Shown here: in pieces, positions 1,258 to 32,720 of the stretch | How the letters are laid out: each line of letters begins with the position of its first letter | How positions within the stretch are numbered: the stretch's first letter is position 1 | DNA from: a virus | Taxonomy: Duplodnaviria > Caudoviricetes | Virus record (IMG/VR): IMGVR_UViG_3300042268_000564 | DNA length: 64,000 nt | Strand: one strand, 5' to 3' | Notes under the pieces: generated by a model | The model's database searches: none | The model's input: the letters and a program-made list of their open reading frames with translations, nothing else | What the model was told of the DNA's origin: nothing | Position numbers and translations under genes: made by a program

Positions 1258-1610
1258 ACGTGCCAATAAAAATTAAACAAGATATCAAAGTTTTATATTT
1301 GCCAAAAGACAGGCTGCTGAACGGAGAATATGAAATAGAATTTTATCAAAATGGTCTATTGTTAAGTCTTGGCGAGGAATATAAATTAGTGCTGAGAGAC
1401 ACTAAACTTTACGCTGAATTTCTTTATCCTAATGATGGCGATGTGTTCAAAATGAGAATCCAGAGTCGTGTTATTGATAGTTCTAATTTTGGAGCTTATA
1501 TCTGTTGCTCGATGTTTTGTAAAAGATTTCATAACAAATCTAACTTGTTTTTTTCAGGGATTGTGTTAATAGATGATGAAATAGCTAATATTGAAATGGA
1601 CTTACTCTAA
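1254..1610 (+). CDS. probable paralog of 880-1257, ending EMDLL*
   Basis: FYQNGLLLSLGEEY...YPNDGDVFKM aligns by eye with the neighbour's motif. Confidence 0.5.
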   Translation: MNVPIKIKQDIKVLYLPKDRLLNGEYEIEFYQNGLLLSLGEEYKLVLRDTKLYAEFLYPNDGDVFKMRIQSRVIDSSNFGAYICCSMFCKRFHNKSNLFFSGIVLIDDEIANIEMDLL

Positions 1611-2797
1611 TCCATTAAGCAAAAATCCAGCTCATTATCATAGAATTTTTTAATTCTATTCTCTGCAATCTTTACATATTCAGGGCTAAGTTCTATTCCG
1701 ATAAAGTTTTTATTTTGCTCCATTGCTACGATACCAGTAGTCCCAGAGCCAAAGAATGGGTCGAGCACGGTTCCACCTTCAGGACAGCCAGCAAGAATAC
1801 ATGGCGTTATTAATTCACGAGGATAAGAAGCGTAGTGTTTTTCATTATTGCCTTTAACAGCAATTGTCCAAACGTCTCTGCGATTGCGCATCTCATCTAC
1901 GTGCCTTTTCCCTAATTCCTTTAGACCATCTTTGTTGTGTCCGCCACATTCTGACCAAGTGAAATGATTTTGTCCGCCGGGCAGGTCACCAGCTCTTACT
2001 GATGGCTCTTTGATTGCATCATTGTTGAAATAATATTTTGGCTTTTTGCTGAAAAGGAAAATGTATTCGTGAGCACGGCTACAACGGTCTTGAACTGATT
2101 CAGGCATTGGGTTCCCGCTCCAGCCATGTTTGCAGGCATCGCCAGAAACACCTTTTGCCCAAATGATGTCTTGACGTAAAATCCAGCCATCATCTTGTAG
2201 TGCAAATGCCACCCTCCAAGGAATTCCCAACAAATTCTTTGCAGGCAATTCTTTGGTCGTTTTTGTTAAGGTACCAGTTGTAGAACCTTTATTTGTTTTT
2301 TGCATCTCAGAGCCGACTATTGAACCGTCGCTCATCATTCCCTTACCACTGCCAGCATAAGAATCACCTAAATTGAGCCATAAAGTGCCTGATGGTTTTA
2401 ATACCCTACGTATCTCTCTGAATACCACAGTGAGCTTTTCAAGGTATTCTTTCATTGTAAATTCAAGACCAATTTGTTTGTCGATTCTTTTTGCGCCACA
2501 TTTCTCACAGATATCTTTGTAATAGTAGCCATCTATTTTTGTTTCTTCTCGACTCGGACGATTTTGATTAAACTCAGGATTGCCAAATTTCTTTGTTCTT
2601 GTTGGGTCAGCTACGTGGTCGCAATCAAGCGAACCACCCTCCCACGTAGACGTTCCATAATCACGAAGCCCAAGGTAGGGAGGCGAGGTTACACAGCAAT
2701 CAACAGAGTTGTCTGGTAGTTGTTTTAAGACCTCTATGCAGTCACCGTTGATGATGGAGTTGGGTTCAATCGTGGGTGTTGTAGTGACGTTTATCAT
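1607..2797 (-). CDS. DNA methyltransferase, beta class (N4-C/N6-A)
   Basis: Catalytic CVTSPPY near the N-terminus; SAM-binding DPFFGSGTTG near the C-terminus. Confidence 0.93.
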   Translation of the reverse strand: MINVTTTPTIEPNSIINGDCIEVLKQLPDNSVDCCVTSPPYLGLRDYGTSTWEGGSLDCDHVADPTRTKKFGNPEFNQNRPSREETKIDGYYYKDICEKCGAKRIDKQIGLEFTMKEYLEKLTVVFREIRRVLKPSGTLWLNLGDSYAGSGKGMMSDGSIVGSEMQKTNKGSTTGTLTKTTKELPAKNLLGIPWRVAFALQDDGWILRQDIIWAKGVSGDACKHGWSGNPMPESVQDRCSRAHEYIFLFSKKPKYYFNNDAIKEPSVRAGDLPGGQNHFTWSECGGHNKDGLKELGKRHVDEMRNRRDVWTIAVKGNNEKHYASYPRELITPCILAGCPEGGTVLDPFFGSGTTGIVAMEQNKNFIGIELSPEYVKIAENRIKKFYDNELDFCLMD

Positions 2798-2838
2798 TTA
2801 AACATATCCAATTCTTCAAATTTGTATACTTTTGCCAT
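2794..2838 (-). CDS. 14-aa micro-ORF MAKVYKFEELDMFK (tag-only peptide or gene remnant)
   Basis: ATG at 2838 with GAGGT upstream; TGA overlaps the ATG of the 1607-2797 MTase. Confidence 0.35.
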   Translation of the reverse strand: MAKVYKFEELDMFK

Positions 2839-2878
2839 ACAATCGTTTACCTCTGCTATACAATCTTGTTCATTTTTT

Positions 2879-2924
2879 AATTTTGTTCACAAAAAATGAA
2901 CAAGCATTTTTTGTGAACAAAATT
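2879..2924. repeat. perfect 20-bp inverted repeat with 6-nt loop
   Basis: AATTTTGTTCACAAAAAATG-aacaag-CATTTTTTGTGAACAAAATT. Confidence 0.85.
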
Positions 2925-4348
2925 TAATCGAACATGTCTATTTCTTGCATTTGAATAGCAGGGAATTGACTATTGCTGGACAGGGGAACTTTTTCTTTTT
3001 TATGAACATTAGCCGTAGCGCAGGTTTCATTGGCTACAATCTCAAGTCTGGCTTTTGCAGTGCCGAATGATTCCTTTTCTTTCTCAATACCAATAAAATA
3101 TCTACCTTCCATCAAGCAGCCAATGCCTGTAGAGCCACTTCCCATAAATGGGTCTAATACAATGCCCCCAGTTGGCGTTTTTGTTAATTTAGCAAGGTAA
3201 GACATGAGGTTGCGATTTTTTACAGCAGGATGTTTGTTTTCTACTTGTCCATCGCACGTCCTATCTCGTTTTGAGGCTTTCGCACAATAATAGAATCTTG
3301 CAATGGAGCCTGAATCGCCATGTTGGTTTTGCGGGTTGCTTTTACCTCGCAAGAGGGTGGTGTTGCTGTCGCCATCATAAGCATTTACATCTTTCTTTGT
3401 TGCACCTGATTTGGTTTTGCCATATTTATTAAATTCTTGCATTACATCATCAGAGCCGTCGTGAATCACGTTACTGGGGAAACGACCATTCTCGCTATTT
3501 TTTATGATTTGTTCAGGAGGGAGTATGGGACTGACATTGAAATCAATATTTGCACTTTTGTTTGTTTTCACACTTTTAAAGCTGTGCCTTTTTTGTTCAT
3601 ATTTTTCTCTGTCAGATAGACCTATTGGCACTCTGCACTCCTCAATGTTTAAGCCAGCCACACCCCATTTAAGAGCATTATCAACATAACTGCCCTCATT
3701 AGGCTTCGTCATTACCAAAATTGGCTCAAAGGCAGGTTTAAGTGCGTGACTATGCCAACCATTCCATAGTTCGGCTTCAGGACTTGCTGGTTTTGTAATT
3801 TGGATAACATTGCCATGTTCATTGTAGTTATTAGGTCTATGTCCTTGTACCACATTTGCTTTGTTGACATTTGCCATTCCGCCAGACTTTGTAATGGTCT
3901 CAGATATAACCTCTCGTTCAAGCCCTTTTGTCTTGTCTATTTTTTTTGAAATGTTAAGCGATTTGGGAAATCCTTCTGAGTGAAGAAAGAATATACAATC
4001 CTTGAATGTAAAGCCTGCGAGCTGCATAGAGATTGCCATCAAGTCGAAGGTTCTAGTCCCAGCAAATACCAGCGCAGTACCTCCCGGCTTTAAAACACGA
4101 CAAACTTCTTTCCAGATAGCAGGAGGTGGAACGCTGCTGTCCCATTCTTTACTCATAAAACCTTTAGCCCCCACTTTGTCGGCAGAATGTTGTCCCAAAT
4201 CAAGCCATTCCTGTAACAAGCCAGCGAGGTCTTTTATCTCGCCTAGCCCGTATGGTGGGTCGGAAATTACAGTGTCGACAGAGTTGTCGTCCATTTTTTT
4301 AAGCTCGTCGTAACAATCGCCGTGGATGAGTTGGTATTTTTCCTGCAT
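2924..4348 (-). CDS. DNA methyltransferase, beta class, large insert; ends QEIDMFD*
   Basis: ISDPPY, HPAVK and DPFMGSGSTG motifs. Confidence 0.93.
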   Translation of the reverse strand: MQEKYQLIHGDCYDELKKMDDNSVDTVISDPPYGLGEIKDLAGLLQEWLDLGQHSADKVGAKGFMSKEWDSSVPPPAIWKEVCRVLKPGGTALVFAGTRTFDLMAISMQLAGFTFKDCIFFLHSEGFPKSLNISKKIDKTKGLEREVISETITKSGGMANVNKANVVQGHRPNNYNEHGNVIQITKPASPEAELWNGWHSHALKPAFEPILVMTKPNEGSYVDNALKWGVAGLNIEECRVPIGLSDREKYEQKRHSFKSVKTNKSANIDFNVSPILPPEQIIKNSENGRFPSNVIHDGSDDVMQEFNKYGKTKSGATKKDVNAYDGDSNTTLLRGKSNPQNQHGDSGSIARFYYCAKASKRDRTCDGQVENKHPAVKNRNLMSYLAKLTKTPTGGIVLDPFMGSGSTGIGCLMEGRYFIGIEKEKESFGTAKARLEIVANETCATANVHKKEKVPLSSNSQFPAIQMQEIDMFD

Positions 4349-4358
4349 AATTTTCCCA

Positions 4359-4386
4359 TTGACAATATTGATTCGCTATTTATAAT
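4359..4386 (+). promoter_or_regulatory. sigma70-type promoter, 16-bp spacer
   Basis: TTGACA 4359-4364, TATAAT 4381-4386. Confidence 0.75.
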
Positions 4387-4405
4387 ACCTTTGACGGGAG
4401 AAAAT

Positions 4406-4753
4406 ATGACAGAGATATTCTTAAAAGACATGCGCCGCAAGCTTGAATCTGTTGGCGTATTGACAAGAAAAGAGCAGATGCAATTATTGGACATTGCAGA
4501 ACAACAAAGGTTGACAAATAAAGAGTTGAAGTTACTAGAGTATTTCCTTGATGATTACGGGAATGATTTAAGTAACAGGGGGTGTAATGACGTGCCTGAG
4601 AACGTTTGGAAGGATTGGTCAATAGATGAGCGCAAAAACTTTGTAAAGGCTTATCATGATTACAATGGTGGCACCGAAGAATTTGATGAAAACTTTTTAC
4701 ATTTGCCTGATTATTGTATTGTCAGTTTTTTAAGACATAAATTAAAAGGTTGA
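4406..4753 (+). CDS. hypothetical protein
   Basis: GGGAG SD before ATG 4406; directly downstream of a promoter. Confidence 0.65.
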   Translation: MTEIFLKDMRRKLESVGVLTRKEQMQLLDIAEQQRLTNKELKLLEYFLDDYGNDLSNRGCNDVPENVWKDWSIDERKNFVKAYHDYNGGTEEFDENFLHLPDYCIVSFLRHKLKG

Positions 4754-4756
4754 AAA

Positions 4757-5386
4757 ATGATTTCAGTGATTACTAACTTCGGGTGTGATGAGGGATGTTC
4801 TTATTGCATAATGCGAGGACATCCTTTTGAACATGTAAAAACAACTGTTCAATCCACTGATTGGGAAGAATTAAAACGGGTTTTGCAAGGGCAGATAAGA
4901 ATTTCTGTTTCTGGTGGTGGCGACCCTTTATATCAACTTGAGCAAAATATGGACTGGTGGGAACATTTCTTTGACGTTGCACAAGGTCTTGAAATTGACT
5001 TACACACAGCAAAACTATCGCCAGTCAGCTTTGCAAGGAATTTCGCAAAGTATGTTTGGCATGTTAAAGACATAACAAAACCAATAGCGTTAGAATATAA
5101 ACAACTGGTTGACTATGGAATACCTGTAAGAATGGTAGCTGTGGGAGAAGAAAGATACACTGAGGATGATTATCTGCGTTTCGCAAGGCAAGTTGTGATG
5201 ATGGGGTTTCAATGTTCTTTCCGTGAATTGGTTGTTGATGGTGAAGCAAAGAATATCGCTTTGACAAGTTTTTTGGAGACAGAGCGTTGGTGGAAATTTG
5301 TTCGGCAAGCTGATTATAATACGTATTTCATGCCCGATAATAATCTTTATGATAAGTTCTTGATAGGAGAAACCTCTCATGCTTAA
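4757..5386 (+). CDS. radical SAM protein (small, stand-alone)
   Basis: CDEGCSYC (CX3CX2C) and SVSGGGDPL motifs. Confidence 0.85.
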   Translation: MISVITNFGCDEGCSYCIMRGHPFEHVKTTVQSTDWEELKRVLQGQIRISVSGGGDPLYQLEQNMDWWEHFFDVAQGLEIDLHTAKLSPVSFARNFAKYVWHVKDITKPIALEYKQLVDYGIPVRMVAVGEERYTEDDYLRFARQVVMMGFQCSFRELVVDGEAKNIALTSFLETERWWKFVRQADYNTYFMPDNNLYDKFLIGETSHA

Positions 5387-7433
5387 ATTTAAAAATGCAT
5401 TTTATTTGCCTTCTGGACGAATTTTTCTGCTCGAAACAGGTGACGGTTATCCCATTGAATGTACTGAAATGAGAGACGTGATGGTTGATAGCAAGCAACA
5501 TGATGCAGTAAGAACCAGTATCGACCCGAAAGTTATTTGGCAGCATTTGCGCCCGTATGACAAGAAATGGCTTCTCACTGTGAGCACTCAGAAAGGTTGT
5601 CCGCATAATTGTCAATTTTGTTTGGTACCCGGTTCGCCAATATTGATGCAAAACTTTAATTCAATACCGATAGAAGAAGTGAAATTAAATGATATTGTTT
5701 GGGTTCCAACCCCGTCTAATGAGTTCTGCAAATATCCTGCACAATATGCAACAAAAAAATATGTTAGCCTGAGCAAGGTAACTGGTTTAATTAAACGGGT
5801 TTATAGTGGAGAAGTCTTTTCTATCAAAACTAAGTCGGGTTTATGTATAGAATGGATAACACAAGAACACCCTGTTTATGTGTTACGAAAAGGGCGTTTT
5901 AAAGCAACTCCAGCAAATGAGCTTAGTGTTGGTGACACAGTTCTTTCTTTTAAGTCTGCAAGTCTTTCCCCTACGAATATTAATTGGGAAAGGGGATGGC
6001 TTGCTGGCATGGCGGATGGTGATATGTATAGAGGTTTTTATACAAATACTATGATGCCAAGAATGTCATTAATGCAAAATAATATTGAAGTTGTGGCTTT
6101 TGCAAAAAGCATTCTAGACAAATATGGGATTAATACGAGTGCAATAAACCCGGTAAAAAACAAGGGAAACGGGGGCTATATAGTTACATGGGGTGGCAAA
6201 GCTGTTGTTGAATTTGATAATTTTATTAATGATGGCGAACAAGATGAGGATTATATGAGAGGGTATATCGCAGGTTTTTGGGACGCTGAAGGGGCTAACT
6301 TGTCTAATGGCGATTGTGTTAGAGCTTATAATAAAAATATAGCTTTTTTAAACAAAGCAGAAAGCTATTGTCATCGACTTGGATATATTTCTGCACATGT
6401 AGTGCATTCTTCTGGCTGTAGCTACATACAAACAGGAATTCGAAAATTTGATTTTATTACTAAATTTAGACCACAGCATCCAAAATCTTTTTTTTGGCGC
6501 AATCAAAACAAGACAAGATGGGCGGCTGACACTTATGGAGTGGATACGATTATAGAAATTCAAAAAAAGCAGTATTGTGGAGTCGTTCACAATATAGAAA
6601 CTGAAATGCATTCATACTTTACTGGCGGGGTTGCAAACCATAATTGTGACGTCGCGCCGCTCCCATTCGAGGGGAATTTAACGAGGAACGAAATTCTTGC
6701 TCAGGTGCAATTTTTGATAAGAACGACACCGTATGCAGTTGGCAGCCAAAAGGTTAAGATTGGTTTCGCTCGAATGGGCGAGCCTGCCCACAACCTGCAA
6801 AACGTATTGGATGCCATACGAGAACTTTTGCCGCCATATGAAAAAGGGAAAACAGTGGAAATTGTTGGCGGGACAATGCCATTCTGTAATTTTAAGTGGC
6901 TCCCATGCTTTAATTCTATTCTGCCACGAAAAACTATAGAGGGATTAAGCGGTGAAGATGTTCTGAAGCGTGTTATTGAGTTTAAAGAGACTGTCTGTCA
7001 TGGTTTTTTGCATTTACAGATAAGTTGTAATTCCACAGATGAGACCAAGCGCAAAGAATTGTTTGGTGGGGCGGATGTTCTTTCCTTGCCAGAAATAGTT
7101 GAAATAGTCAACAAAACTGAAATAACCGACAGAACTATTACTTTGAATTTTATTGTGATGAAGGGGGTAGAGGTCGATGTTCAGAAGCTTGTAAAAATGG
7201 GCTTGAATCCCAACAAGTTCGCAGTGAAACTTATTCCGTTGAATCAGACTAACAATAGCAGTGAGAATGGTCTTGAAACATTTGCCAATTACGACAACTA
7301 TGATGATTTGAAAAAGTTGGCAGATGAATTTAAAAGCCATAATATCCCTGTAGTTTTTGATGCAATTGCCAAGTGCGAAGAAGCTGGACTCTGCTGTGGG
7401 CAGTTGGCACATATTTTTATAAAAAATGCTTGA
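5379..7433 (+). CDS. RlmN/Cfr-like radical SAM methyltransferase containing an intein
   Basis: Extein motifs VSTQKGCPHNCQF|C, RMGEPAHN, KLIPLN, CCGQL match the RlmN/Cfr pattern. Confidence 0.85.
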   Translation: MLKFKNAFYLPSGRIFLLETGDGYPIECTEMRDVMVDSKQHDAVRTSIDPKVIWQHLRPYDKKWLLTVSTQKGCPHNCQFCLVPGSPILMQNFNSIPIEEVKLNDIVWVPTPSNEFCKYPAQYATKKYVSLSKVTGLIKRVYSGEVFSIKTKSGLCIEWITQEHPVYVLRKGRFKATPANELSVGDTVLSFKSASLSPTNINWERGWLAGMADGDMYRGFYTNTMMPRMSLMQNNIEVVAFAKSILDKYGINTSAINPVKNKGNGGYIVTWGGKAVVEFDNFINDGEQDEDYMRGYIAGFWDAEGANLSNGDCVRAYNKNIAFLNKAESYCHRLGYISAHVVHSSGCSYIQTGIRKFDFITKFRPQHPKSFFWRNQNKTRWAADTYGVDTIIEIQKKQYCGVVHNIETEMHSYFTGGVANHNCDVAPLPFEGNLTRNEILAQVQFLIRTTPYAVGSQKVKIGFARMGEPAHNLQNVLDAIRELLPPYEKGKTVEIVGGTMPFCNFKWLPCFNSILPRKTIEGLSGEDVLKRVIEFKETVCHGFLHLQISCNSTDETKRKELFGGADVLSLPEIVEIVNKTEITDRTITLNFIVMKGVEVDVQKLVKMGLNPNKFAVKLIPLNQTNNSSENGLETFANYDNYDDLKKLADEFKSHNIPVVFDAIAKCEEAGLCCGQLAHIFIKNA
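5619..6644 (+). mobile_element. intein with LAGLIDADG homing endonuclease (342 aa)
   Basis: Starts CLVPGSPILM; block B ITQEHP; WLAGMADGD and YIAGFWDAEG; ends VHNIETEMHSYFTGGVANHN followed by Cys+1. Confidence 0.93.
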
Positions 7434-7457
7434 CAATAGTCCAACTCTTTTTATAAT
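7430..7457 (+). promoter_or_regulatory. sigma70-type promoter, 16-bp spacer
   Basis: TTGACA-N16-TATAAT. Confidence 0.8.
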
Positions 7458-7485
7458 AAAAGAAACTACATTTGAGGTGTGATTT

Positions 7486-7695
7486 ATGCCAGACAGCCGA
7501 AAAGAAAAACTGTTGCAAGCCCTGATTGATGAAAGGGCACGTCTTTTGAACAGTCGAGGAGCTTCTACTGAGCATGATGCTGCAATAGAATACTTGCAGA
7601 CAGGCAAAACAGATGTAAGCCCTGACGATGATGAAATGCTCTATGCGGTGATGGAAGATTTTGACTGCATATGCAGCGACTACGGGATTGAATAA
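7486..7695 (+). CDS. hypothetical protein
   Basis: GAGGTG SD; follows a promoter. Confidence 0.65.
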   Translation: MPDSRKEKLLQALIDERARLLNSRGASTEHDAAIEYLQTGKTDVSPDDDEMLYAVMEDFDCICSDYGIE

Positions 7696-7707
7696 TGGAG
7701 GGATAAT

Positions 7708-8127
7708 ATGATTCCAAAAACATTATCTGACCTGCGAAACGGGAAGTGGGGCACCATGTGTGGTGTTGGTGGGAACGAGTGCTTTACCCCAAAAGTTATT
7801 GATACTCTGGAACTCTTTTTCGAGCAAGAAATTGAGTATGAATTTGAAGAGGCAGAGAACAGGGCTTGTATTGTAGACGACCAGTGCGATATTTCAGCTA
7901 TTGGTTCTGTTTATCTACAGGCAAAAGACGGTGTTGAACTAACCGATGAAATGATGCAGGAATACGACATCCTTCATCAGAAATATCACGGCGAACCTGA
8001 CGACATTCTGTCCGAACGGGAACCATTGGAAATCGTTGCCAGATACATTTCCTTGTTGATAGACGATGGTGATGGTTCTTGGCGACCAGATGTTTGTGGA
8101 AACAGGGTTTATTTTGAAACAGAATAG
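7708..8127 (+). CDS. acidic hypothetical protein
   Basis: GGAGG SD; operon position. Confidence 0.65.
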   Translation: MIPKTLSDLRNGKWGTMCGVGGNECFTPKVIDTLELFFEQEIEYEFEEAENRACIVDDQCDISAIGSVYLQAKDGVELTDEMMQEYDILHQKYHGEPDDILSEREPLEIVARYISLLIDDGDGSWRPDVCGNRVYFETE

Positions 8128-8136
8128 AGGACAAAA

Positions 8137-8601
8137 ATGACTATTCCAGATTGGGTATTCGACATTGAATATAAAGCTATGACGCTCAATAATGATTGGG
8201 TTCATGGCTCTTATGTCAAACAGCTCAATGACAAAGGGGAAATATCTCATTGGATGATTCCTTTAAACGCAACTGCTGGCGTAGAGATTCGTCTTGAATC
8301 TCTCTGCCTTTATACTGGACGCAAAGACCGTAGAGGTAGACGAATCTATCAGAATGACTTGATAGGCAAAGATGATGGTAGCGCAGCCCTTGTTGTGTAT
8401 ATGCCAACTACAGGCTTTTTTCTGCGTTGGGGTGAAGGGCGAGGGAGAGCTACATTTTCTCATGTTGGGCGTGATAGCGGATTTTTCGTGATAGGCAATA
8501 TTTGTGAAAATCCTAAACTTGTTGGGCAAATTAGTCGTTGGGGGAAAAGCTATTATAAACAAAAAGTAGCAGCAGACGATGAAATTCCCGTAATTGCATA
8601 A
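8137..8601 (+). CDS. YopX family protein
   Basis: WVHGSY...LCLYTGRKDRRGRRIYQNDLI...VIGNICENPKL is the YopX pattern. Confidence 0.8.
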   Translation: MTIPDWVFDIEYKAMTLNNDWVHGSYVKQLNDKGEISHWMIPLNATAGVEIRLESLCLYTGRKDRRGRRIYQNDLIGKDDGSAALVVYMPTTGFFLRWGEGRGRATFSHVGRDSGFFVIGNICENPKLVGQISRWGKSYYKQKVAADDEIPVIA

Positions 8602-8799
8602 GAAGCAGTATGAACCCGAATCAGGACATTATAAAGCAAGAGGGTATCGTTCGCCAGTTGTGCAGGCGAGATTAAGAGCAAAACAAAGAATGCTAACAAG
8701 GTTGTTTTATGGGTTCAGTAGCAAGAGGCTGGAAAGGAAACATTTTGAAAATTTGGAACGCTTGGAGCAAGAGCGGACTCAGCGTCGGGAGGCTATGAA

Positions 8800-8997
8800 A
8801 TGGCAGTCACCGCAGTAACAATAGGTAAGCTCATTGAAGGGCATCTCGAAAAAGATGAAAAGAAATTTCTGGCTTATGCAAATTTTATTGCCGATGAATA
8901 TGAAAAAACAGGTGATGAGAGAGCTGCACGTATTATAAGAGAACGGCTTGATGGAAGTTATAAAGCCAAGCCAAAACTTGTGGTGCTGGACGAGTAA
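8800..8997 (+). CDS. hypothetical helical protein
   Basis: GGAGG SD; operon position. Confidence 0.55.
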   Translation: MAVTAVTIGKLIEGHLEKDEKKFLAYANFIADEYEKTGDERAARIIRERLDGSYKAKPKLVVLDE

Positions 8998-9436
8998 AAC
9001 AATGACTCAGAATTGGTGTCTTAATGTGACAAATGGTTTCAAAGAGTTTAAAGGTAAAGAATTTGACATGGTTCCTGTAAAGATTTTTTCTAATAATGGC
9101 AAAGAATTGGTCGCCGCTGGCGAAGCCGCACGCAGCGTTATTAATAACCCGCAAGCTTTTTTGCAGGATTTTTGCAAAGAGGTGCCAGAGGCTTCTAAGC
9201 TTGTTATAATGAATGTTTATTGTGAAACGCCATACACGCCTGATGATTTAGTGGTATTCTATCGGGACGATGATGGGCAATGGTGTTTGACGTGAGCAAA
9301 AAGAGATTTACAACTGTTATTCCACAGTATATCAATGATTATTTTGATTTACCTTACACGGACAGGCATTTAAAAGACGGTGAAGCAGTAGATACTACTG
9401 ATGGTTTAAAGATTATCAAGAAAGAGCAACAAGACG

Positions 9437-10216: not shown

Positions 10217-10226
10217 GAAGTCAATT

Positions 10227-10883: not shown

Positions 10884-10892
10884 TATAATGGC

Positions 10893-12062
10893 ATGGAATT
10901 CAAAACAAAACATGCTTATGTCTTATTTGGCAATGCTTTACAACGATTAAAAGAGATTCCTGACGAATCCGTACATTGCTGTGTCACAAGCCCCCCTTAT
11001 TATGGCTTGCGTTCATATTTGCCTGACGAACATCCTGACAAGGTGGATGAAATTGGGCTTGAACAATCACCAAAAGATTATATCAATAATTTGGTAATGA
11101 TTTTCAGGGAAATTAGACGTATTTTGCGACCCGACGGCTCGGTCTGGGTGAACATAGGTGACTGTTATGTAGCTGGGAAAGGGACAGCAAGCCCTACAAC
11201 TACAGATAGCAAAGCTTTGTTAAAAGAAATGAATGTAAAGCCGAAAGATTTGCTTGGAATCCCTTGGATGTTGGCTTTTGCCTTAAGAGATGATGGGTGG
11301 TATTTGCGTCAAGAAGTCATTTGGTCAAAGGTTTCTGCAATGCCTGAATCAGTGACTGATAGATTTACAAAAGCGCATGAACAAGTGTTTCTTTTGACAA
11401 AAAATGCGAAATATTTTTTTGATAATGAAGCGGTAAAAGAGAAGGCTGTATCGAATAAAAAAGGTTCCAGAGTATTTGGCTCAAAAGAACAAGTTGGAAC
11501 TTTAAGAAATGATATAGGCAGAGAATTTGTTGATAATGGCAAGAGGAATAAACGGTCAGTCTGGCATATTGCACCTGAATCGTATAGTGGGGCACATTTT
11601 GCTGTTATGCCAAAGAAATTAGTAGAGCCATGTATTCTTGCAGGCACGTCCGAAAAGGGATGTTGTTCTGTTTGCGGGAATCCTATTGTTAGACTTACAG
11701 AAAGACAAGTTGCAACATCAAAGTCTTGTCCTAAAACAGAAGAGGCACACAAGGCTAGAGGCGGTCAAGGTGAGCCTTCTGGTACCGTGGGGAAGTCGGG
11801 CAGTGGAAGGGTTGACGGTTATACTATAACGGTTGGATGGGAGCCAACATGTAGTTGTGGCAAAGGAATTTCGCCATGCAAAGTAATAGACCCATTCGCT
11901 GGCTCTGGAACTGTTGGCGAGGTTGCCTTGAAGTTTGGACGTGATTTTGTCGGCATTGAGCTTAATGGTGAGTATTATTCTTTAATAGAGAAGAGATTGC
12001 AAGAGGCAGAGCTTGTGGCAAGCATGAAAACAGTGAGCTACGAAGAATTGGAAATGGAATGA
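10893..12062 (+). CDS. DNA methyltransferase, beta class; ends YEELEME*
   Basis: CVTSPPY, HFAVMP and DPFAGSGT motifs; paralog of 1607-2797. Confidence 0.93.
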   Translation: MEFKTKHAYVLFGNALQRLKEIPDESVHCCVTSPPYYGLRSYLPDEHPDKVDEIGLEQSPKDYINNLVMIFREIRRILRPDGSVWVNIGDCYVAGKGTASPTTTDSKALLKEMNVKPKDLLGIPWMLAFALRDDGWYLRQEVIWSKVSAMPESVTDRFTKAHEQVFLLTKNAKYFFDNEAVKEKAVSNKKGSRVFGSKEQVGTLRNDIGREFVDNGKRNKRSVWHIAPESYSGAHFAVMPKKLVEPCILAGTSEKGCCSVCGNPIVRLTERQVATSKSCPKTEEAHKARGGQGEPSGTVGKSGSGRVDGYTITVGWEPTCSCGKGISPCKVIDPFAGSGTVGEVALKFGRDFVGIELNGEYYSLIEKRLQEAELVASMKTVSYEELEME

Positions 12063-14885: not shown

Positions 14886-14891
14886 AACAAA

Positions 14892-22242: not shown

Positions 22243-22323
22243 AAAAATCTCCTTTATTTTTTACAATTTAGAAAGAGGGCATACTCGCAGGGTAAAAATA
22301 TTATCCCTCTCTTTAAGACTTTA

Positions 22324-22351
22324 TTGACAAGAATAAACGAGTTTATATAAT
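22324..22351 (+). promoter_or_regulatory. promoter, 16-bp spacer, leaderless start
   Basis: TTGACA-N16-TATAAT-N6-ATG(22358). Confidence 0.8.
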
Positions 22352-22357
22352 AGATAT

Positions 22358-23068: not shown

Positions 23069-23224
23069 ATGGATTTTGATATTGAACTTGCTCAAGATTC
23101 GCTTAACAATAAACGAACAAAGACCAATCTCACTCCTGTAAAGCGTGAAGCTATTGCTTTTATGGCGTGCCGTGATGAATTTTATTTGTTGCAGCTTGAG
23201 TTGCATCGGTATAATAGGAATTAG
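23069..23224 (+). CDS. small protein MDFDIELAQ... (possibly truncated by the adjacent TnpB element)
   Basis: TAATG overlap; shares the FDIEL N-terminus with 675-893. Confidence 0.45.
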   Translation: MDFDIELAQDSLNNKRTKTNLTPVKREAIAFMACRDEFYLLQLELHRYNRN

Positions 23225-23233
23225 AGAATACTG

Positions 23234-24292: not shown

Positions 24293-24355
24293 TAAATATT
24301 TGGCAAATTTTATGCAACTATGATAATCATAACGGAATTTTCAGGAGGATTTAAA

Positions 24356-24670
24356 ATGGACGTGATAGACGTAAAAGATTTTCAGAACGATGTTCTTAAC
24401 CATAAAGGCTTGGTATTAGTAGATTTTTGGGCTACTTGGTGCGCACCTTGTCGACAAATGCACTCTGTCATGGAATTGCTGGCAGTAAAACATTCTGACG
24501 TTAAAATTGCCAAAGTAAATATCGAAGACCACCCAGAGCTTCCCAACACATACGGAGTAGCCTCTGTTCCAACTTTTCTTTTGTTTAAAGACGGTGACGT
24601 AAAGGCGAGTCTTGTTGGTGTTAATCCTGCGGCAGTTTTTGAAAAGTTATTTGAAGATTGGAGAGAGTAA
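24356..24670 (+). CDS. trxA: thioredoxin
   Basis: LVDFWATWCAPC, SVPT; AGGAGG SD before ATG 24356. Confidence 0.93.
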   Translation: MDVIDVKDFQNDVLNHKGLVLVDFWATWCAPCRQMHSVMELLAVKHSDVKIAKVNIEDHPELPNTYGVASVPTFLLFKDGDVKASLVGVNPAAVFEKLFEDWRE

Positions 24671-24914
24671 TGCAGGATGGTAGATATTATTTCAGGCTTG
24701 ACCGTGAAAAGATGGTTATGGAGCCTATAAAGTTTGAGAATTTTGGCGATATTTGTAAAGATGATATCGTAATGTATGTCGATGTTGATGACTCTGTCAC
24801 AGATAATCCTATGTTAAGTAGCACGCCATTATTCAAAGTGAATGATGTGGGCACTAATGAACAAGGTGAAAAATATCTGCAATCAGACAGAGTTACACAA
24901 TTCTTTGTTGATTT

Positions 24915-25673
24915 GTGATGATTGACCTATTGCATGGCGATTGTCTTGATGAAATGCATAAGATTCAAGACAAGTCTGTAGATTTCATTTGTTGCGACTT
25001 GCCTTACGGCGCAATCGCGCAGGAATGGGACAAGCAGATAGATATTGTCATGTTATGGGAACATTACAATAGAATCCTTAAAAAAGATGGTACAATCGCA
25101 TTATTCGGCTCACAGCCATTTACCACACAATTAATCGCAAGTAACTTAAAGGATTTCAAATATTGCTGGTATTGGATTAAGAATCAGGGAACCAATTTCT
25201 TTCATGCCAATAAAATGCCAATAAGAAAAGTCGAAGAAATATGCATATTCAAAAATGGTAAATATTTCCCTCAAAAAACAAAAGGGCACGAACCTACCAG
25301 AGCCGCAATAGGTTGCAGTAACGGGAACGCCTACCATGGTGATAATAAGCGGAATTATGAGGGTGGCGATACAACAAGGATGCCGACGAATGTGTTGAGT
25401 TTCAAGTGTGTGGATAATTACAATCGGTTTCATGTGTCAGAAAAGCCTGTTGATTTGTTGAGATATTTGGTGAAAACATACACAAATGAAAATGATGTGG
25501 TGCTTGATAATTGCATGGGCAGTGGCTCTATGGGGGTTGCTTGTATTGAAACAGGACGGCGGTTTGTTGGGATAGAACTGGAACAGGAATATTTCGCTAT
25601 AGCATCTGATAGAATTAATAATGCTTACAGAGATAATTCTGTCGATTTTGAAGAGGTGGACATGTTCGAATGA
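24915..25673 (+). CDS. DNA methyltransferase, beta class; ends EEVDMFE*
   Basis: CCDLPY, HVSEKP and DNCMGSGS motifs. Confidence 0.92.
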   Translation: MMIDLLHGDCLDEMHKIQDKSVDFICCDLPYGAIAQEWDKQIDIVMLWEHYNRILKKDGTIALFGSQPFTTQLIASNLKDFKYCWYWIKNQGTNFFHANKMPIRKVEEICIFKNGKYFPQKTKGHEPTRAAIGCSNGNAYHGDNKRNYEGGDTTRMPTNVLSFKCVDNYNRFHVSEKPVDLLRYLVKTYTNENDVVLDNCMGSGSMGVACIETGRRFVGIELEQEYFAIASDRINNAYRDNSVDFEEVDMFE

Positions 25674-25898
25674 GATATGAATTAAAGCCGCCGATTTACT
25701 TTGTAGGGCAAACAGTATTTTTTGTAGATAAAGCCACTAGAAAAAGAATTGAGCAACATGGCACAATAAGACAGGTTAAGACTAATTATTTCTTGCAAGA
25801 TAGAGGGAAGGTTGTAAAAGGCGGACATGTTTATCTTATTAAGGCAGATGGGAAAGAAATTTGGGTCAGTGAAAATAACATTTTACGAGTAATATTAT

Positions 25899-26384
25899 AT
25901 GGGTGGTGAACTAATGGATAAATGTCAACGATTCTTTGACTTGTATGTTGATGCAGATTTTGTAGCATGGCAAAAAGCATGTATGAAATACAAGAAAGCC
26001 CTGAATCGGTTCAACATTGCTGATTACACGTCTTACAATTCTTTCAAAGATTGGTCTGACGATTTGTCTGAACTTGTGAATGAGATTATAAGAGCTAGGA
26101 AGCTTTATAAAAGATACCTCGGCAAGATTGTTTATGGCAAGAATTTAAACGAGATAACAACCTGTTACATCATTGTAGGGATGAATTCAGTTGGAAACTT
26201 TGTATTGAGTGAGATTAACCGTCCTCATATTGTTAAGTGTGCTGATTACCTGTTGGCTTATTATGAGTTTTTTGATGCTGCTGGTTATCTTGCTGAATGG
26301 CGAAAAACATCTTTAGAAGAGTGTAAGCAGAGTATTGCCTATTTCAAAGATGCAGATGAAAAGTTCGAAGTGGAATTGGATTAA
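25899..26384 (+). CDS. hypothetical protein
   Basis: Coding-strand ORF. Confidence 0.55.
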   Translation: MGGELMDKCQRFFDLYVDADFVAWQKACMKYKKALNRFNIADYTSYNSFKDWSDDLSELVNEIIRARKLYKRYLGKIVYGKNLNEITTCYIIVGMNSVGNFVLSEINRPHIVKCADYLLAYYEFFDAAGYLAEWRKTSLEECKQSIAYFKDADEKFEVELD

Positions 26385-26659
26385 ATTTTAGGATTGTGCT
26401 CACCTGAGCATGATATGCACATTCCGCTGATTGTGTTGCCTTTGTAAGTTCTTGTTCCACATTTGGAACAGTTTATAAAGTCTCCCTGACTGTTGACACC
26501 ATAACACTTGTCAACGATTTCTTTAATATCCGGCCACATTAGTCCTGAGCCTTGTTTTGTAACTGATACTACCGCAACTATCATATCAAACATGGTTTCA
26601 GGCTTCTGGTCGTTCATAAAGGTTTTGATTGCGTTGGTTAGTTGTTCTTGTTTGGTCAT
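26381..26659 (-). CDS. small zinc-ribbon protein
   Basis: CSKCG...CISC. Confidence 0.55.
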   Translation of the reverse strand: MTKQEQLTNAIKTFMNDQKPETMFDMIVAVVSVTKQGSGLMWPDIKEIVDKCYGVNSQGDFINCSKCGTRTYKGNTISGMCISCSGEHNPKI

Positions 26660-26715
26660 AGTAGTTCCTTATTTACGCACAAGCAGGTAAACCGTTCAAG
26701 CAAAGTTATAAAAAC

Positions 26716-27918
26716 TTAAACTTGTCTTTGTTCATGGGGGACGGTACGCACCCCACTCAAGAAACGATTGCGGATATTCAGGCTCCCATTATAGTCAGCA
26801 TCTAAAGATACATGACATTGTTCGCAATCATATCTTTCACCATTTCTTGATTCCTTGCAGATTGCTCCGCAATTAGAACATATTTGACTCGTATACTCAG
26901 GCGCAACAAATGCAAGAAAAACACGGTTTTCCGCACATTTATTGGCTAATCGCCCGAATAAAAGTCTACTATTCCAGCTCCCCAAAGTTTTTCGATGTTC
27001 CTTGGAGGATTTGCCTCTTTTGCTCATGTGACGAACCTTGAGGTCTTCCAAAACAATAGCACAAACATCTTTCAAATCCAGCTTGTTTACTTGTTGTCCA
27101 ATATAGTCTTTAATCTCGGCAATAGTCTGTTTTGAGTTTTTACTGCCACGTTTCCTGCGTTTTAACTTTTGGATTTTGGCTTCTATGTCTCTACCCAAAA
27201 ATTCACCTTCAGACGTTGACATCAGTTTCTTGATTCCAACGTCAATACCAACAACCTTGCCAGTTGCTTTAATTTCAAGAGTTTCTTTTTCCAGAAACAA
27301 ATTAACGTACAGTTTATTGTCTATTCTGCGTAGTTGTACAGAAGACTTAACTGCATATCCGCTGTTAATATGTCTGTTAAACAGAGCATGTTTCTTAGTT
27401 GGCAATAATAAAGAAATTCGATTGCCGAAGATAGAGCCTAGTCTTACAGCGAGGTCAAATATTTTCATTTTATTGGGAGACAAATATATCGTAACAAGGT
27501 CACTATTCAGGTCTATCGAGTTCCCGTTAAAAACAGGAACTTTGACTCTATCTCGGAACTTTCTGTCTTTTGCCCATACAGACCATTTTTGAGCCGTAAG
27601 TGCTTGAAATTTATTTTTGCCTTTGGCATAAGCATATACTCGTTTGTAAGCCTGATAAATTCGTTTCTGGTTCTTGGCTTGGGTTGCCTTTATCATTTGA
27701 ACGGCTTGACGATAGGCGCATTTTACGGCTTTGCCACACAACCAAGTCGTAACACGTCTCCACTGTGTTGCATTGGCTTTTGAAACAAGCTTCTTTTCGT
27801 TCCAATATAGAGTGATAAATTCATTGACAACACGTTGATATTCAACAAACAGCGAATCTAAAAGTTCTCGTTTTTTCGCTGTTATGAACTTTAAACTGTG
27901 TTGTGTACGTTTTATCAT
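26716..27918 (-). CDS. tnpB: TnpB RNA-guided nuclease
   Basis: GIDVG, VLEDL, PEYTSQICSNCG...CEQC..DADYNGSLNI. Confidence 0.92.
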   Translation of the reverse strand: MIKRTQHSLKFITAKKRELLDSLFVEYQRVVNEFITLYWNEKKLVSKANATQWRRVTTWLCGKAVKCAYRQAVQMIKATQAKNQKRIYQAYKRVYAYAKGKNKFQALTAQKWSVWAKDRKFRDRVKVPVFNGNSIDLNSDLVTIYLSPNKMKIFDLAVRLGSIFGNRISLLLPTKKHALFNRHINSGYAVKSSVQLRRIDNKLYVNLFLEKETLEIKATGKVVGIDVGIKKLMSTSEGEFLGRDIEAKIQKLKRRKRGSKNSKQTIAEIKDYIGQQVNKLDLKDVCAIVLEDLKVRHMSKRGKSSKEHRKTLGSWNSRLLFGRLANKCAENRVFLAFVAPEYTSQICSNCGAICKESRNGERYDCEQCHVSLDADYNGSLNIRNRFLSGVRTVPHEQRQV

Positions 27919-28064
27919 TTTTCGGGGGTTTGCTTCTTTTGTTTTGCTAGATATTCTTCGCAGGCTCGACGAATAACATCAGAAGTTGCAAGCCCTTTGG
28001 CTTGGGCGTGCTTCTTCAAGTCTTCCATTAGTGGTTCGGACAAATATATTTGAAATCTTTTCAT
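27915..28064 (-). CDS. ribbon-helix-helix (CopG-like) protein, 49 aa
   Basis: MKRFQIYLSEPLMEDLKKHAQAKGLATSDVIRRACEEYL; ATGA overlap with tnpB; not in the ORF track. Confidence 0.85.
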   Translation of the reverse strand: MKRFQIYLSEPLMEDLKKHAQAKGLATSDVIRRACEEYLAKQKKQTPEK

Positions 28065-28313
28065 GTCTTTATTATACACCTATTCGGCGTATTTGTCAAA
28101 AACATACAAATATAATTTTACATAAAAATATTTAGCCATGTTTTAAGACCTTCTACGAATTTCACTACATCTTTCATTGTTGCTTCCATGTTCTCGGCTC
28201 CTTTTTGTTTTTATCTTTATACCTTAATTATAATAAAACACAAAAAAATGTCAAGTAAGTTAGAAAAGTTTTTTCAAAGATATAATAGTAAAAAAGCGTG
28301 ATGGAGATGCTAC

Positions 28314-29675
28314 ATGATTGAATGTAAAGATAGTTTAGAATTTTTGAAAGAACGCCAAGACTATGAGAATGATATAATTTTCGCAGACCCACCATATGCA
28401 CTTGGCTCTGAGATAATGATAAGACCTGACGGTAAAGTAGATTACAAAAAAGCCGCTGATTTTATGGGCAAGTGGGATATGCCCACAGGTGATTGGTGGG
28501 AACAGTGGTTTAAAGAAGCTTTCAGAAGCTTAAAGCACGGTGGTTATTGTATCTTATATGGTGTAGACCGCCAGTTACTTCTTTTTAAGTATTATGCTGC
28601 TTTAGCAGGTTTCATAGAACAGCAGAGCCTTTATTGGGCGTTTCTTAGTAATTTCCCAAAATCGGTTGACTTGAGCAAGATGCTTGATAAACATTATGGC
28701 TGCGAGCGAGAGGTTATAGGCAAATGTTTTGATGGCAAAGGTTCTGATAGTGGCAGTGGAATCTATGCCATGAATAATGGTGAATCGAACCTCGGAAAAG
28801 AATATGATATCACTGCCCCCTCTCATGAATTAGCAAAAAAATATGATGGTTATAAATACAGCATATCACCTCTAAAACAAACCAACGAAACTGTAATGGT
28901 CTTTCAAAAGCCATATAAATCAGGCTCTTGCTTGCACGATACGTTGGCTTATGAAAACGGCGACAATACTTGTTGTTGTGGTGCGTTAAATATTGATGGA
29001 AATAGAGTTGCTACTGATGAAGAGCTTGGCAGGCAACAGGATAAAAGTCCTTTACCGCCAGAAAAAGGGTTTAATAATAATAGTATTGGTGGTAAGTTTC
29101 AGGCAGGAAATCCAGCAGGACGTTTCCCTGCACAAACCCTTGTTGACTCGAAAATGGCTAAAGCATTAGACAATCAAACTGATTCGGCTGATGGTGCTTC
29201 AAAATTGTTGCATATTTGTGACTTTGAATCAGATGAGCTTGAGCTTTACTATTATGAACCAAAGGTAAGCAAGAATGAACGTGACGCAGGTCTGGAAGAA
29301 CTCGACCCAACAAATGCTAATAGGAACAAAGCTGCTTTAACCGCAGTGGAGAACAGAGAAGCGTCAAGTAAAAATCCACATCCAACATTGAAACCATTGT
29401 CTTTGAACTTCCGTATTTTGAGCCTGTTTAAAACGCCTAACCCGCAGCGAATTTGCTTCCCTTTTGCTGGCAGCGGCTCAGAGGTTATCGGGGGCATTAA
29501 GGCAGGCTTTACAGATTGGACGGCGTGTGAGCTTTCGCAGGAATATGTAGATATTGCGATGAAGCGTATTGAATATTATTCAAAAGGTGCGCCGGAACGC
29601 AAGGTAATAAAAGCTGTTGATGCCGATGGTAATGAAAAGAAAGTTATCGTTGAGCAATTGGATATGTTTGAATGA
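28314..29675 (+). CDS. DNA methyltransferase, beta class, large insert; ends EQLDMFE*
   Basis: FADPPY, HPTLKP and PFAGSGS motifs; paralog of 2924-4348. Confidence 0.9.
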   Translation: MIECKDSLEFLKERQDYENDIIFADPPYALGSEIMIRPDGKVDYKKAADFMGKWDMPTGDWWEQWFKEAFRSLKHGGYCILYGVDRQLLLFKYYAALAGFIEQQSLYWAFLSNFPKSVDLSKMLDKHYGCEREVIGKCFDGKGSDSGSGIYAMNNGESNLGKEYDITAPSHELAKKYDGYKYSISPLKQTNETVMVFQKPYKSGSCLHDTLAYENGDNTCCCGALNIDGNRVATDEELGRQQDKSPLPPEKGFNNNSIGGKFQAGNPAGRFPAQTLVDSKMAKALDNQTDSADGASKLLHICDFESDELELYYYEPKVSKNERDAGLEELDPTNANRNKAALTAVENREASSKNPHPTLKPLSLNFRILSLFKTPNPQRICFPFAGSGSEVIGGIKAGFTDWTACELSQEYVDIAMKRIEYYSKGAPERKVIKAVDADGNEKKVIVEQLDMFE

Positions 29676-30433
29676 ATGCAATTTATCATGCTGATTGTTT
29701 TGAGATTTTCCCAAAAATTGAATCTCAATCAGTGCAATTAATCTTGTGCGATTTACCGTATAACACAACTCAATGTTCATGGGATTGCATATTGCCTCTC
29801 GACAAACTCTGGCAAGAATATGAGCGGATTATAAAGCCTAATGGCGCAATTGTGTTAACGGCGGCTCAACCATTCACCAGCGAGCTTGTAATGAGCAATA
29901 AAAAGCTTTTTAAATATGAATGGATTTGGCGCAAAACAAAAGCACAGCATTTTGCTCAGGCACCATATCGTCCCATGACGAACCATGAAAGTGTCTTGGT
30001 ATTTTCCTTTGGCGGCACAGCTAAAAATGCTAATAATCGCATGAAATATAATCCGCAGGGAATTGTAAAATGCAATATTACTTGCAAAGGGAAAAAGGCT
30101 ACGCATTCAGAACACCGCAGTAGGTTAACAGACCAAGATGATTATGTTCAGGAATACACTAATTATCCGAAAACGGTGATTGATTTCGCAAATGAGGGGA
30201 AGACTATTCATCCGACACAGAAACCTCTTTCTTTATTCGAGTATATCATAGAAACATATACTGACGCAGATGACTTGGTTCTTGATAATTGTGCAGGCTC
30301 GTTTACTACTGCTGTCGCCTGCATCAACACTGATAGACGATATATTTGCATAGAGAAAGAGCAAAGATATTTTGAACTTGGCAAAGAGCGGATTGATTCG
30401 CATGTTCGAGAATATGATATGTTTAGTGATTAA
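29672..30433 (+). CDS. DNA methyltransferase, beta class; ends EYDMFSD*
   Basis: LCDLPY, HPTQKP and DNCAGS motifs. Confidence 0.92.
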   Translation: MNAIYHADCFEIFPKIESQSVQLILCDLPYNTTQCSWDCILPLDKLWQEYERIIKPNGAIVLTAAQPFTSELVMSNKKLFKYEWIWRKTKAQHFAQAPYRPMTNHESVLVFSFGGTAKNANNRMKYNPQGIVKCNITCKGKKATHSEHRSRLTDQDDYVQEYTNYPKTVIDFANEGKTIHPTQKPLSLFEYIIETYTDADDLVLDNCAGSFTTAVACINTDRRYICIEKEQRYFELGKERIDSHVREYDMFSD

Positions 30434-31237
30434 ATGACAAAATTCCAATGGACACCAGAGCTGGAAGTAAAAGTCCTTGCCTTGAAAAAGCGAGGTTTAA
30501 CTTTTGCTCAAATAGCGGCTGAAATAGGAACCACAGAGCGTAGTGCAAAACATAAGGTTAGACGCTTAAGACAAGCAATGAATCAAGATAGGTATAAACA
30601 TACTGACGAGAAATTGAAGCAAATACAAATTGCAGGATTAACACCTTGCCGCCGGATTTTGGAAACTCACGCAGGGTTCGGTGGTTTAACAAGACATTAT
30701 GCGCAGGTGGCAGCCACTGTGACAAGCATTGAAATAAAGCAGGAACGAATTGATGAGATAAAAGCTTTGAGCTTGCCTAATGTGGAGCTGATTAAAGGTG
30801 ATTCTGAAGTTGAGATTTATCGTCTGTTGCACGAACGTAGGGTTTTTGATGTGATAGATGTTGACCCTTATGGTTTGCCAAGTCGATATTTCCCTCATAT
30901 TTTTGGGTTGATTGATGACGGTATATTGTTCTTAACATTCCCTGTAATGGGTGTTGCGCAGATTAATAAGATGACGATAGCTCATTATCGTGTTTTCTGG
31001 GGGATAGAATTATCTGACAAAGATGTTTATCTGGATAAAATAAAGGCAAGGCTTGCAGAATATGCGTTTATGCACAAACGGCAAATAGAAATTCTTGATG
31101 AGAAGCGAATCAATAGAATCTACAGGCTGGCTATTCAGGTAAAGAAAACATCATTGCTCGACATGCTTGGGCTTAAGGTGAATCGGAATAAAAAGATTGT
31201 TACAAAACAATATGAAGAAATGGACATGTTTGACTAA
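30434..31237 (+). CDS. HTH-fused class I SAM-dependent methyltransferase with Trm1-like motif; ends EEMDMFD*
   Basis: WT.E...GLTFAQIAAEIGTT (HTH); LETHAGFG; FDVIDVDPYG. Confidence 0.8.
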   Translation: MTKFQWTPELEVKVLALKKRGLTFAQIAAEIGTTERSAKHKVRRLRQAMNQDRYKHTDEKLKQIQIAGLTPCRRILETHAGFGGLTRHYAQVAATVTSIEIKQERIDEIKALSLPNVELIKGDSEVEIYRLLHERRVFDVIDVDPYGLPSRYFPHIFGLIDDGILFLTFPVMGVAQINKMTIAHYRVFWGIELSDKDVYLDKIKARLAEYAFMHKRQIEILDEKRINRIYRLAIQVKKTSLLDMLGLKVNRNKKIVTKQYEEMDMFD

Positions 31238-31743
31238 TGGGAATAGGTAAAAACAACGACTTTACGAGTAAAAAAGTGGAATACAGCACGCCTCTAAGCT
31301 TGTTCGTCCCTTTGAAAGATGAATTTGATATTACGGTAGACGTGTGCGCTGATGAAACTAATTTTAAGTGTGAGACATATTTTAGTGTCGATGACGATGC
31401 TTTAAGGCAGGATTGGACAGGGAACTGCTGGATGAACCCCCCGTTTACAAAAGATTTGAATAAATGGGTACGTAAAGCAAGAAACGATGCGAATGAATTT
31501 GGCGGGACAAAGGTTTGTCTTGTTCCAGTCAGGTCGAACACAAAGTGGTGGGGTGAGGTAATTGAAGACGCGGAAGTTAGATTTATTATTGGCGAGGTAA
31601 ATTTTAATGATGAGCCTAGAGGACTGTGGTTGCCAATGTGTATATTGATTTTCGGCGAAAAGGCAAAAGCGGGAAAGTTTTCTACCATTTATTATAAAAA
31701 AAACACGCAAGTTAAAAATAATGAAATGGACATGTTTGATTAA
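31237..31743 (+). CDS. phage Dam-type N6-adenine DNA methyltransferase; ends NEMDMFD*
   Basis: YSTP..F, VDVCA, DAL.QDW, CWMNPPF, LVP.R..TKWW. Confidence 0.88.
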   Translation: MGIGKNNDFTSKKVEYSTPLSLFVPLKDEFDITVDVCADETNFKCETYFSVDDDALRQDWTGNCWMNPPFTKDLNKWVRKARNDANEFGGTKVCLVPVRSNTKWWGEVIEDAEVRFIIGEVNFNDEPRGLWLPMCILIFGEKAKAGKFSTIYYKKNTQVKNNEMDMFD

Positions 31744-32720
31744 TGGCAGGGATAGAAGACCGTATAACAAACTATGATGGTCAGCATTGCTGGCAATATG
31801 ACATTCGATTGCGGAACCGTGACGAAGACATTGCCGAGTCTGGCTTGTCGCTTGACGAGATAGCAGCTTTAAGGTGTTCAGATTTTACTTTGCAACAAGA
31901 ACCAAAAGAACAGAGCCATCACGAGATAAAACGATTCATTGAACGACACGAATGGCTTGGCACGATGCCACTTTATGCAACCCACTATTTTACGGCAAGA
32001 TACAAAAACATCCTTGCAGGCGTGGTAATTATGGGTTTGCCCGGTAATTTTTCTAAGTTGCTTGGCAAGAAGTCTGAAGACCTTGAGCGTTTAATTAGTC
32101 GAGGTGCTTGTGTTTCGTGGTCGCCAAAGAACCTTGCGAGTAATTTGATTTCGTTTGCGATGAATTGGATGGTTCAGAATACAGAGTTTCGATTATTCAC
32201 TGCATATAGCGATACTGAAGCAAAAGAACTGGGAACAATCTACCAAGCATGTAATTTTTATTACTTGGGCAAGATTGCTGGTGCTACTTGGCAATATAAG
32301 TTGCCTGATGGAAAGCTAGTCTCTGACAGGCACTTTCGTAGTAGAAGTGTTTACAAAAGGCTCGCAAAAGCTGCTGGAATCTTTTGGGAAGCAAGTTGGC
32401 AGACCAGAGATACGGTACATCTGGATAGGATGCCTGACGAGGTTGCTTTTATTCTAAGGCAGATGTCGAAAGATTATCAAAATTCCTGCGAACGTAGGAA
32501 AATATCGGCAAAACATAAATATGCCTATGTTTTGGGTAGAGACAAGCGAGAAACAAAAGCTTTACGGCGTGAATTTGAATCAAGAAACAAAACATTTCCT
32601 TATCCAAAAGATAGATTGTCGCATGTTGAGGAACAAGTAGAATTTGAGGCACCTCTTGAGAATAAACTGGACGATGTTTTATTAAAGCCTGCCTATACAG
32701 AAGTTGACATGTTTGAATAA
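31743..32720 (+). CDS. Mom-like (GNAT) DNA modification protein; ends TEVDMFE*
   Basis: IERHEWLG, LISRG, PKNLAS.LIS, AYSD...GTIYQACNFYYLG, KHKYAY. Confidence 0.75.
   Translation: MAGIEDRITNYDGQHCWQYDIRLRNRDEDIAESGLSLDEIAALRCSDFTLQQEPKEQSHHEIKRFIERHEWLGTMPLYATHYFTARYKNILAGVVIMGLPGNFSKLLGKKSEDLERLISRGACVSWSPKNLASNLISFAMNWMVQNTEFRLFTAYSDTEAKELGTIYQACNFYYLGKIAGATWQYKLPDGKLVSDRHFRSRSVYKRLAKAAGIFWEASWQTRDTVHLDRMPDEVAFILRQMSKDYQNSCERRKISAKHKYAYVLGRDKRETKALRREFESRNKTFPYPKDRLSHVEEQVEFEAPLENKLDDVLLKPAYTEVDMFE

Follow-up and report, generated by a model that had tools for sequence, protein, structure and literature searches.

A shared C-terminal tag on DNA-modification enzymes

Most of the DNA-modification enzymes encoded in a stretch of 64,000 nucleotides (the window) of the Caudoviricetes record IMGVR_UViG_3300042268_000564 share a short C-terminal tag. 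Judging from its sequence and placement, this tag is most probably a variant of the beta-sliding-clamp-binding motif, with which the enzymes would ride clamps and modify nascent phage DNA. The source is a wastewater phage with a contig of 398,427 bases, and the window and its extensions cover about 91 kb of these 398 kb. The strict tag, [EQ]xDMF, is present in eight copies in the window, on seven enzymes and one micro-open reading frame (micro-ORF). All nine C-termini listed in an earlier note on this DNA were found where it had placed them; the micro-ORF, which consists essentially of the tag, had been overlooked.

The gene set comprises 113 window genes called by codon usage, of which nine encode modification enzymes. 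As the motif was defined only after inspection, the enrichment figures are optimistic: [EQ]xDMF stands at the C-terminus of 7/9 modification enzymes and 0/104 other genes (Fisher p=9e-10), and composition alone predicts 0.002 such ends. The enrichment is well past chance even with an optimistic p-value, and the motif is not equally common on proteins that do not act on DNA. The TnpB and GIY-YIG proteins lack the tag, as the earlier note had said, and so does DnaX. Translated in all six frames, the window contains [DE]MF[DES] seven times, each time immediately before a stop codon.

Within the pentamer, positions 4-5 are M-F in all eight strict copies and in a further copy in the phage's DinG. 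Position 2 is aliphatic (I, V, L, M) in 7/8 strict copies and Y in one, whereas position 1 is E in 7/8 and Q only in the enzyme ending at 29675. A Y or F is found two residues upstream of position 1 in 4/8. The remaining two enzymes have degenerate tails (ELDFCLMD and YEELEME) that lack the L/M-F/L pair at positions 4-5. The tag lies past the end of the homologs (Mom, Dam) or in an insertion of DinG, and thus apparently outside the folded domain.

The tag codons differ synonymously (GAC/GAT, TTC/TTT, GAA/GAG); what is conserved is therefore the protein sequence, and this suggests that selection acts on the peptide. The codon variation also bears on whether the tag merely results from Shine-Dalgarno sequences and overlapping stop and start codons. 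Several carriers are indeed translationally coupled to the next gene, but two precede non-coding DNA, the other coupled genes all lack the tag, and the DinG copy is internal. Such an origin, which the earlier note had also discounted as the sole cause, is already contradicted, and its probability is close to nil.

The window sequence is 100% identical in further assemblies, and the six plus-strand strict tags show no differences in contigs from two runs not flagged as source. The matching assemblies and runs probably represent one strain, perhaps from one sampling campaign.

Correspondence with the clamp-binding site of DnaE

The bacterial beta-clamp motif is Q-aliphatic-x-[LM]-[FL], and E. 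coli Pol III alpha carries it internally as QADMF (PMC11139829; for its position, see PMC3919608). Ten DnaEs of the phage's clade carry, between the HhH and OB domains, a motif that aligns with this internal motif and reads GQ-[VLIM]-[SDN]-M-F-[EAD] in nine of them and GQTDFF in one. As the clade DnaE motif lies at the clamp site of E. coli alpha, the window tag has the form of the clamp motif of the clade polymerase with E in place of Q. The gene directly upstream of dnaE, which is conserved in two relatives (L232 9442-10011; L151 5782-6387) and has no family assigned in Atlas, starts with QVGMF or QIFMF.

The DinG proteins connect the two forms of the motif. Contigs identical to the window continue for 27 kb on its upstream side, where genes for DnaX, trigger factor and DinG are located. 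The phage's own DinG carries EEVDMF within a Lys-rich insertion that is not present in bacterial DinG, and the motif is found in 0/104 non-clade DinGs. Among 16 phage-clade DinGs, the same site reads QIDMF, QMDMF, QIEMF, EIDMF (twice), EVDMF or ALDMF, while the remaining 9/16 show YEE-x-x-[MI]-[DE] or close variants. Q and E therefore interchange at position 1 in orthologous loops. One relative's 59-kb contig joins DinG (QIEMF), DnaX, a primase, SbcCD, SSB and a 1206-aa DnaE (QVSMF). Replication is of the Pol III type, with DnaX in the phage's own genome and DnaE in linked relatives. A cluster of genes for a HIRAN protein, trigger factor, DnaX and DinG (L110 10001-17677) is syntenic in relative L117.

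In the proposed mechanism, DnaX would load clamps onto replicating phage DNA, and the M-F pair would dock in the hydrophobic pocket of the clamp. The tailed methyltransferases, the Mom-like enzyme and DinG would ride clamps left on new phage DNA, so that nascent double-stranded DNA would be modified soon after synthesis and would escape restriction. The Mom of phage Mu acts post-replicatively on double-stranded DNA (PMC13219725), which fits such a tether.

The clamp-binding address proposed in the earlier note is thus well supported, on comparative grounds, by the match to the clade DnaE clamp site, the Q/E exchange in DinG and the presence of DnaX in the genome; its analogy with T4 gp45 and its alternative of import into a replication compartment are not. 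That the tag is a peptide for a T4/RB69-type gp45 clamp is extremely improbable. The C-terminal peptide of RB69 gp43, LFDMF, speaks for such a clamp. The T4 motif, LDFLF (PMC6212786), is a further point in its favour, but the clamp type is wrong: instead of a gp43/gp45/RFC-type replisome, a bacterial-type DnaX was found in the part of the genome seen and DnaE in the clade, and phages with gp45 show a different dialect.

A role in import into a replication compartment or in virion packaging has a very slight probability. It would suit a tag common to functionally related proteins in a jumbo genome, but the tag and the DnaE clamp site agree in both placement and residues, no compartment gene was found in the parts read, and the DNA-acting GIY-YIG, TnpB and DnaX proteins are without it. 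The terminal placement on flexible tails would also agree with a degradation tag for a phage or host protease, shortening the lifetime of toxic enzymes. This is highly improbable, as the motif is also internal in DinG and DnaE and N-terminal in the gene preceding dnaE. Acidic C-termini, moreover, usually block recognition by ClpXP and Tsp.

Position 1 and the identity of the clamp

Several observations weigh against a clamp-binding function. With E in place of Q, the E. coli clamp is bound far more weakly (PMC11139829), and E occupies position 1 in 0/110 non-clade DnaEs. Nine of the DinG orthologs lack the final F, a residue that is normally needed. According to PMC13216743, the level of glucosylation in T4 is not set by gp45 binding, and docking may therefore be of little consequence in vivo. 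Finally, the phage's own DnaE, which may be split or enlarged by an intein, is absent from the hits in the ~91 of 398 kb seen, and no clamp gene was found in these ~91 kb or in ~70 kb of two relatives. Viral scans with the helix-turn-helix (HTH) methyltransferase, a 556-aa protein, DnaX and DinG as queries returned no clade members, and scans of GTDB and metagenomes returned only low-identity, apparently bacterial homologs. Given that position 1 is Gln in only one of the eight strict copies, we classify the tag as a variant and not as a canonical beta-clamp motif.

A complete 548-kb phage, retrieved by a DNA pattern search, offers a comparison. Its DnaE ends with SVDMFEDLF and an adjoining small protein with EIDMFD; with these two carriers, the tag is not widespread in this phage. 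It encodes DnaX, beside a divergent beta clamp (L240 15783-17093 (-); G001 295780-297096) without the C-terminal P-x-R that most aligned bacterial clamps have. This clamp was missed by the Pfam and TIGR DnaN models, found by a custom hidden Markov model (HMM) and Atlas, and confirmed by structure comparison (TM 0.76/0.87). Blank Pfam results consequently do not exclude a clamp gene. The 548-kb phage provides one example of a non-Q motif paired with a phage-encoded clamp, and, being distant from the window phage, it counts as an analogy only.

The E at position 1, often with an upstream Y/F, has about an even chance of reflecting adaptation to a divergent clamp encoded by the phage. Deliberately weak binding to a host clamp, with the polymerase keeping priority, is less likely; under that alternative, the weakness of the tags would prevent the nine enzymes from displacing the polymerase. 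More specifically, and as a tentative proposal that we regard as somewhat less than even, the phage may encode a divergent beta clamp of its own in which the Gln pocket is remodelled, and the whole modification toolkit, DinG and the micropeptide may use a private E-type address, by which the enzymes would mark phage DNA only and ignore host forks. The micro-ORF would then perhaps be a free competitor or a frameshift-fused N-terminal tag of the methyltransferase at 2797, which would have lost its tail.

The F-less DinG orthologs raise a different explanation, in which a tag of clamp-motif ancestry now docks on another phage-specific hub reading [YF]-E-E-hydrophobic-x-M-[DE]. These nine orthologs keep YEE-x-x-[MI]-[DE] and drop the F, the Q motif is retained in every sampled clade DnaE (almost always as QxxMF), the F-less YEELEME tail at 12062 fits the pattern YEE-x-x-M-D found in a DinG subclade, and a Y/F precedes half of the strict copies. 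However, D-M-F is kept in every strict tag, one copy is a canonical QLDMF, Q and E alternate at one DinG site, and no candidate hub was found. We consider this explanation improbable.

Carriers and their homologs

The earlier note described the carriers (Table 1) as unrelated DNA-modification enzymes. They do belong to several classes, but six of the nine are members of PF01555 (four above the Pfam cut-off, two by precomputed matches), and together with the PF05869 Dam, the HTH-Rossmann methyltransferase and the Mom-like GNAT they represent four families and not nine unrelated enzymes. The six PF01555 carriers are 24-37% identical to one another, and two pairs align through the tail. A DNA substrate is only putative for the HTH-methyltransferase, which has only weak Rossmann and RNA-methyltransferase matches. 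The Mom-like protein matches PF25680 / phrog_1384, from which a Mom-type activity is predicted; its single-sequence folding was uninformative (pLDDT 32).

Table 1 Carriers of strict and degenerate tags in the window
Feature	Coordinates	Strand	Tail and remarks
Beta-class N4/N6 methyltransferase (SPPY)	1607..2797	(-)	Degenerate tail ELDFCLMD; Thr/Pro-rich 12-aa N-terminal extension
14-aa micro-ORF	2794..2838	(-)	Ends FEELDMFK, strict tag; Shine-Dalgarno AGAGGT 10 nt upstream; putatively translated
Beta-class methyltransferase (DPPY)	2924..4348	(-)	Tag QEIDMFD at 2947-2927, then hairpin
Beta-class methyltransferase (SPPY)	10893..12062	(+)	Degenerate tail YEELEME
Beta-class methyltransferase	24918..25673	(+)	Tag FEEVDMFE
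Beta-class methyltransferase	28314..29675	(+)	Tag EQLDMFE; sole fully canonical (Q1) copy
Beta-class methyltransferase	29672..30433	(+)	Tag EYDMFSD
HTH + Rossmann methyltransferase, substrate unproven	30434..31237	(+)	Tag YEEMDMFD
Phage N6-adenine methyltransferase (Dam, PF05869)	31237..31743	(+)	Tag NEMDMFD
Mom-like GNAT DNA-modification enzyme (PF25680)	31743..32720	(+)	Tag YTEVDMFE on ~35-aa tail past conserved end

The homologs show that tails were added in some families and rewritten in another. For Mom, 77/79 full-length viral homologs end at the conserved YPKxR or within a few residues of it, and the two with long tails end with QLRLF and QMRFF. For Dam, the DMF tail is present in only the nearest (82% identical) of 120 homologs. 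Among the cultured-phage homologs of the beta-class methyltransferases, 2/12 have a clear QxxLF-like end. Many near homologs of the HTH-methyltransferase already bear canonical QxxLF-like tails (QHSLF, QKDLF, QTRLF), so in this case the tail was rewritten and not newly added. The claim that tails had been grafted onto acquired enzymes is thus borne out for Mom and Dam, though only in part for the HTH-methyltransferase, and the comparison with homologs that the earlier note had called for gave a mixed answer: some homologs have no tail, and others bear different clamp dialects.

In three gp45-encoding contigs, gp43 ends with SLE[GS]LF and the related methyltransferases end with SLQGFLA, TLEEIFE and SLMDIME. 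The comparisons taken together suggest a general rule by which the tails of phage methyltransferases would follow the dialect of the resident clamp, and tail dialects could then serve to predict the clamp type of a phage and to find unannotated replisome clients. Beta-class methyltransferases with gp43-like terminal peptides are found in T4-like contigs L018, L037, L053, L055, L056 and L059. A 101-aa viral protein family of no assigned function ends with KELDMFD (L085 4413-4718, L096 3043-3348, L101 7339-7644). In a 197-kb phage, a gene weakly resembling DnaN lies close to a Mom homolog (L051 17288-18607 and 9950-10915); the N-terminus of this Mom homolog reads QLRLPSLF, with an uncertain start codon.

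The micro-ORF and other features of the window

The stop codon of the micro-ORF overlaps (ATGA) the start of the methyltransferase at 2797, in the minus-one frame. This methyltransferase has no clear Shine-Dalgarno sequence, its own tail is degenerate and its start is Thr/Pro-rich. The micro-ORF sequence is identical in five other assemblies. Its arrangement is compatible with three roles, namely a leader for translational coupling, a peptide that competes in free form, or an N-terminal tag detached from its protein.

A second C-terminal class, hydrophobic-[LI]-stop (DML, DLL, ELL, ELI), is found in 25/113 genes, which encode mostly non-paralogous proteins of no assigned function. These genes lie at 38297-58293, most densely at 44496-58293, plus 382 and 1610, and they account for 20/24 plus-strand genes in 44.4-58.4 kb. 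As ATGA overlaps occur in about half of them, coupling accounts for only part of this class. At 50000-58300, the GC skew reverses (to -0.2) and the AT skew rises, with the genes still on the plus strand. A third TnpB-like ORF (62483-64000 (+)) is cut by the window end, and the small ORF preceding it resembles 27915-28028. A weak DnaN-HMM match at the right end of the window was rejected as a clamp, as it corresponds to TnpB. The window also contains a 684-aa protein with a LAGLIDADG intein (5379-7433 (+)) and a perfect sigma-70 promoter with a 16-base spacer (4359-4386 (+)).

Comparison with known systems

The window tag resembles the bacterial beta-clamp motif at positions 2-5, in its acidic flanks, in its placement on flexible tails or loops and in its occurrence at the same site of the clade DnaE. 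It differs by the E at position 1 and the frequent upstream Y/F, and its clients are DNA-modification enzymes, which were not found among beta-clamp clients in the literature searched. The coverage of this search was incomplete, and within it no paper dealt with beta-clamp tags common to Mom and the methyltransferases of phages.

The closest phage parallel is the T4 alpha-glucosyltransferase, a DNA-modifying enzyme that co-purifies with the replication clamp gp45 (PMC13216743, citing Sommer 2004). In contrast to the window, where four families share one beta-type tag, T4 has one such enzyme and a PCNA-type clamp, and the excerpt of that paper reports no shared terminal tag. The gp43, gp33 and ligase of T4 share a short hydrophobic clamp peptide, LDFLF (PMC6212786), as several proteins do here, but the clamp family and the consensus are different, and the T4 clients are replication and transcription proteins. 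DNMT1 is likewise a methyltransferase that a short clamp peptide directs to sites of replication (PMC8634572); it is, however, a single enzyme of eukaryotic maintenance methylation that uses a PIP (PCNA-interacting protein) box. The Mom of phage Mu (PMC13219725, PMC7261163) is a GNAT of the same family as the window protein, which differs by its added 35-aa tagged tail, and neither paper mentions a clamp.

If the clamp reading is correct, a five-residue plug-in lets many modest, horizontally acquired enzymes ride the clamp and protects the DNA of a fast-replicating large phage. Clamp-tethered DNA modification is already known from the T4 alpha-glucosyltransferase with gp45 and from DNMT1 with PCNA, and with these precedents the window would extend known biology and not overturn it.

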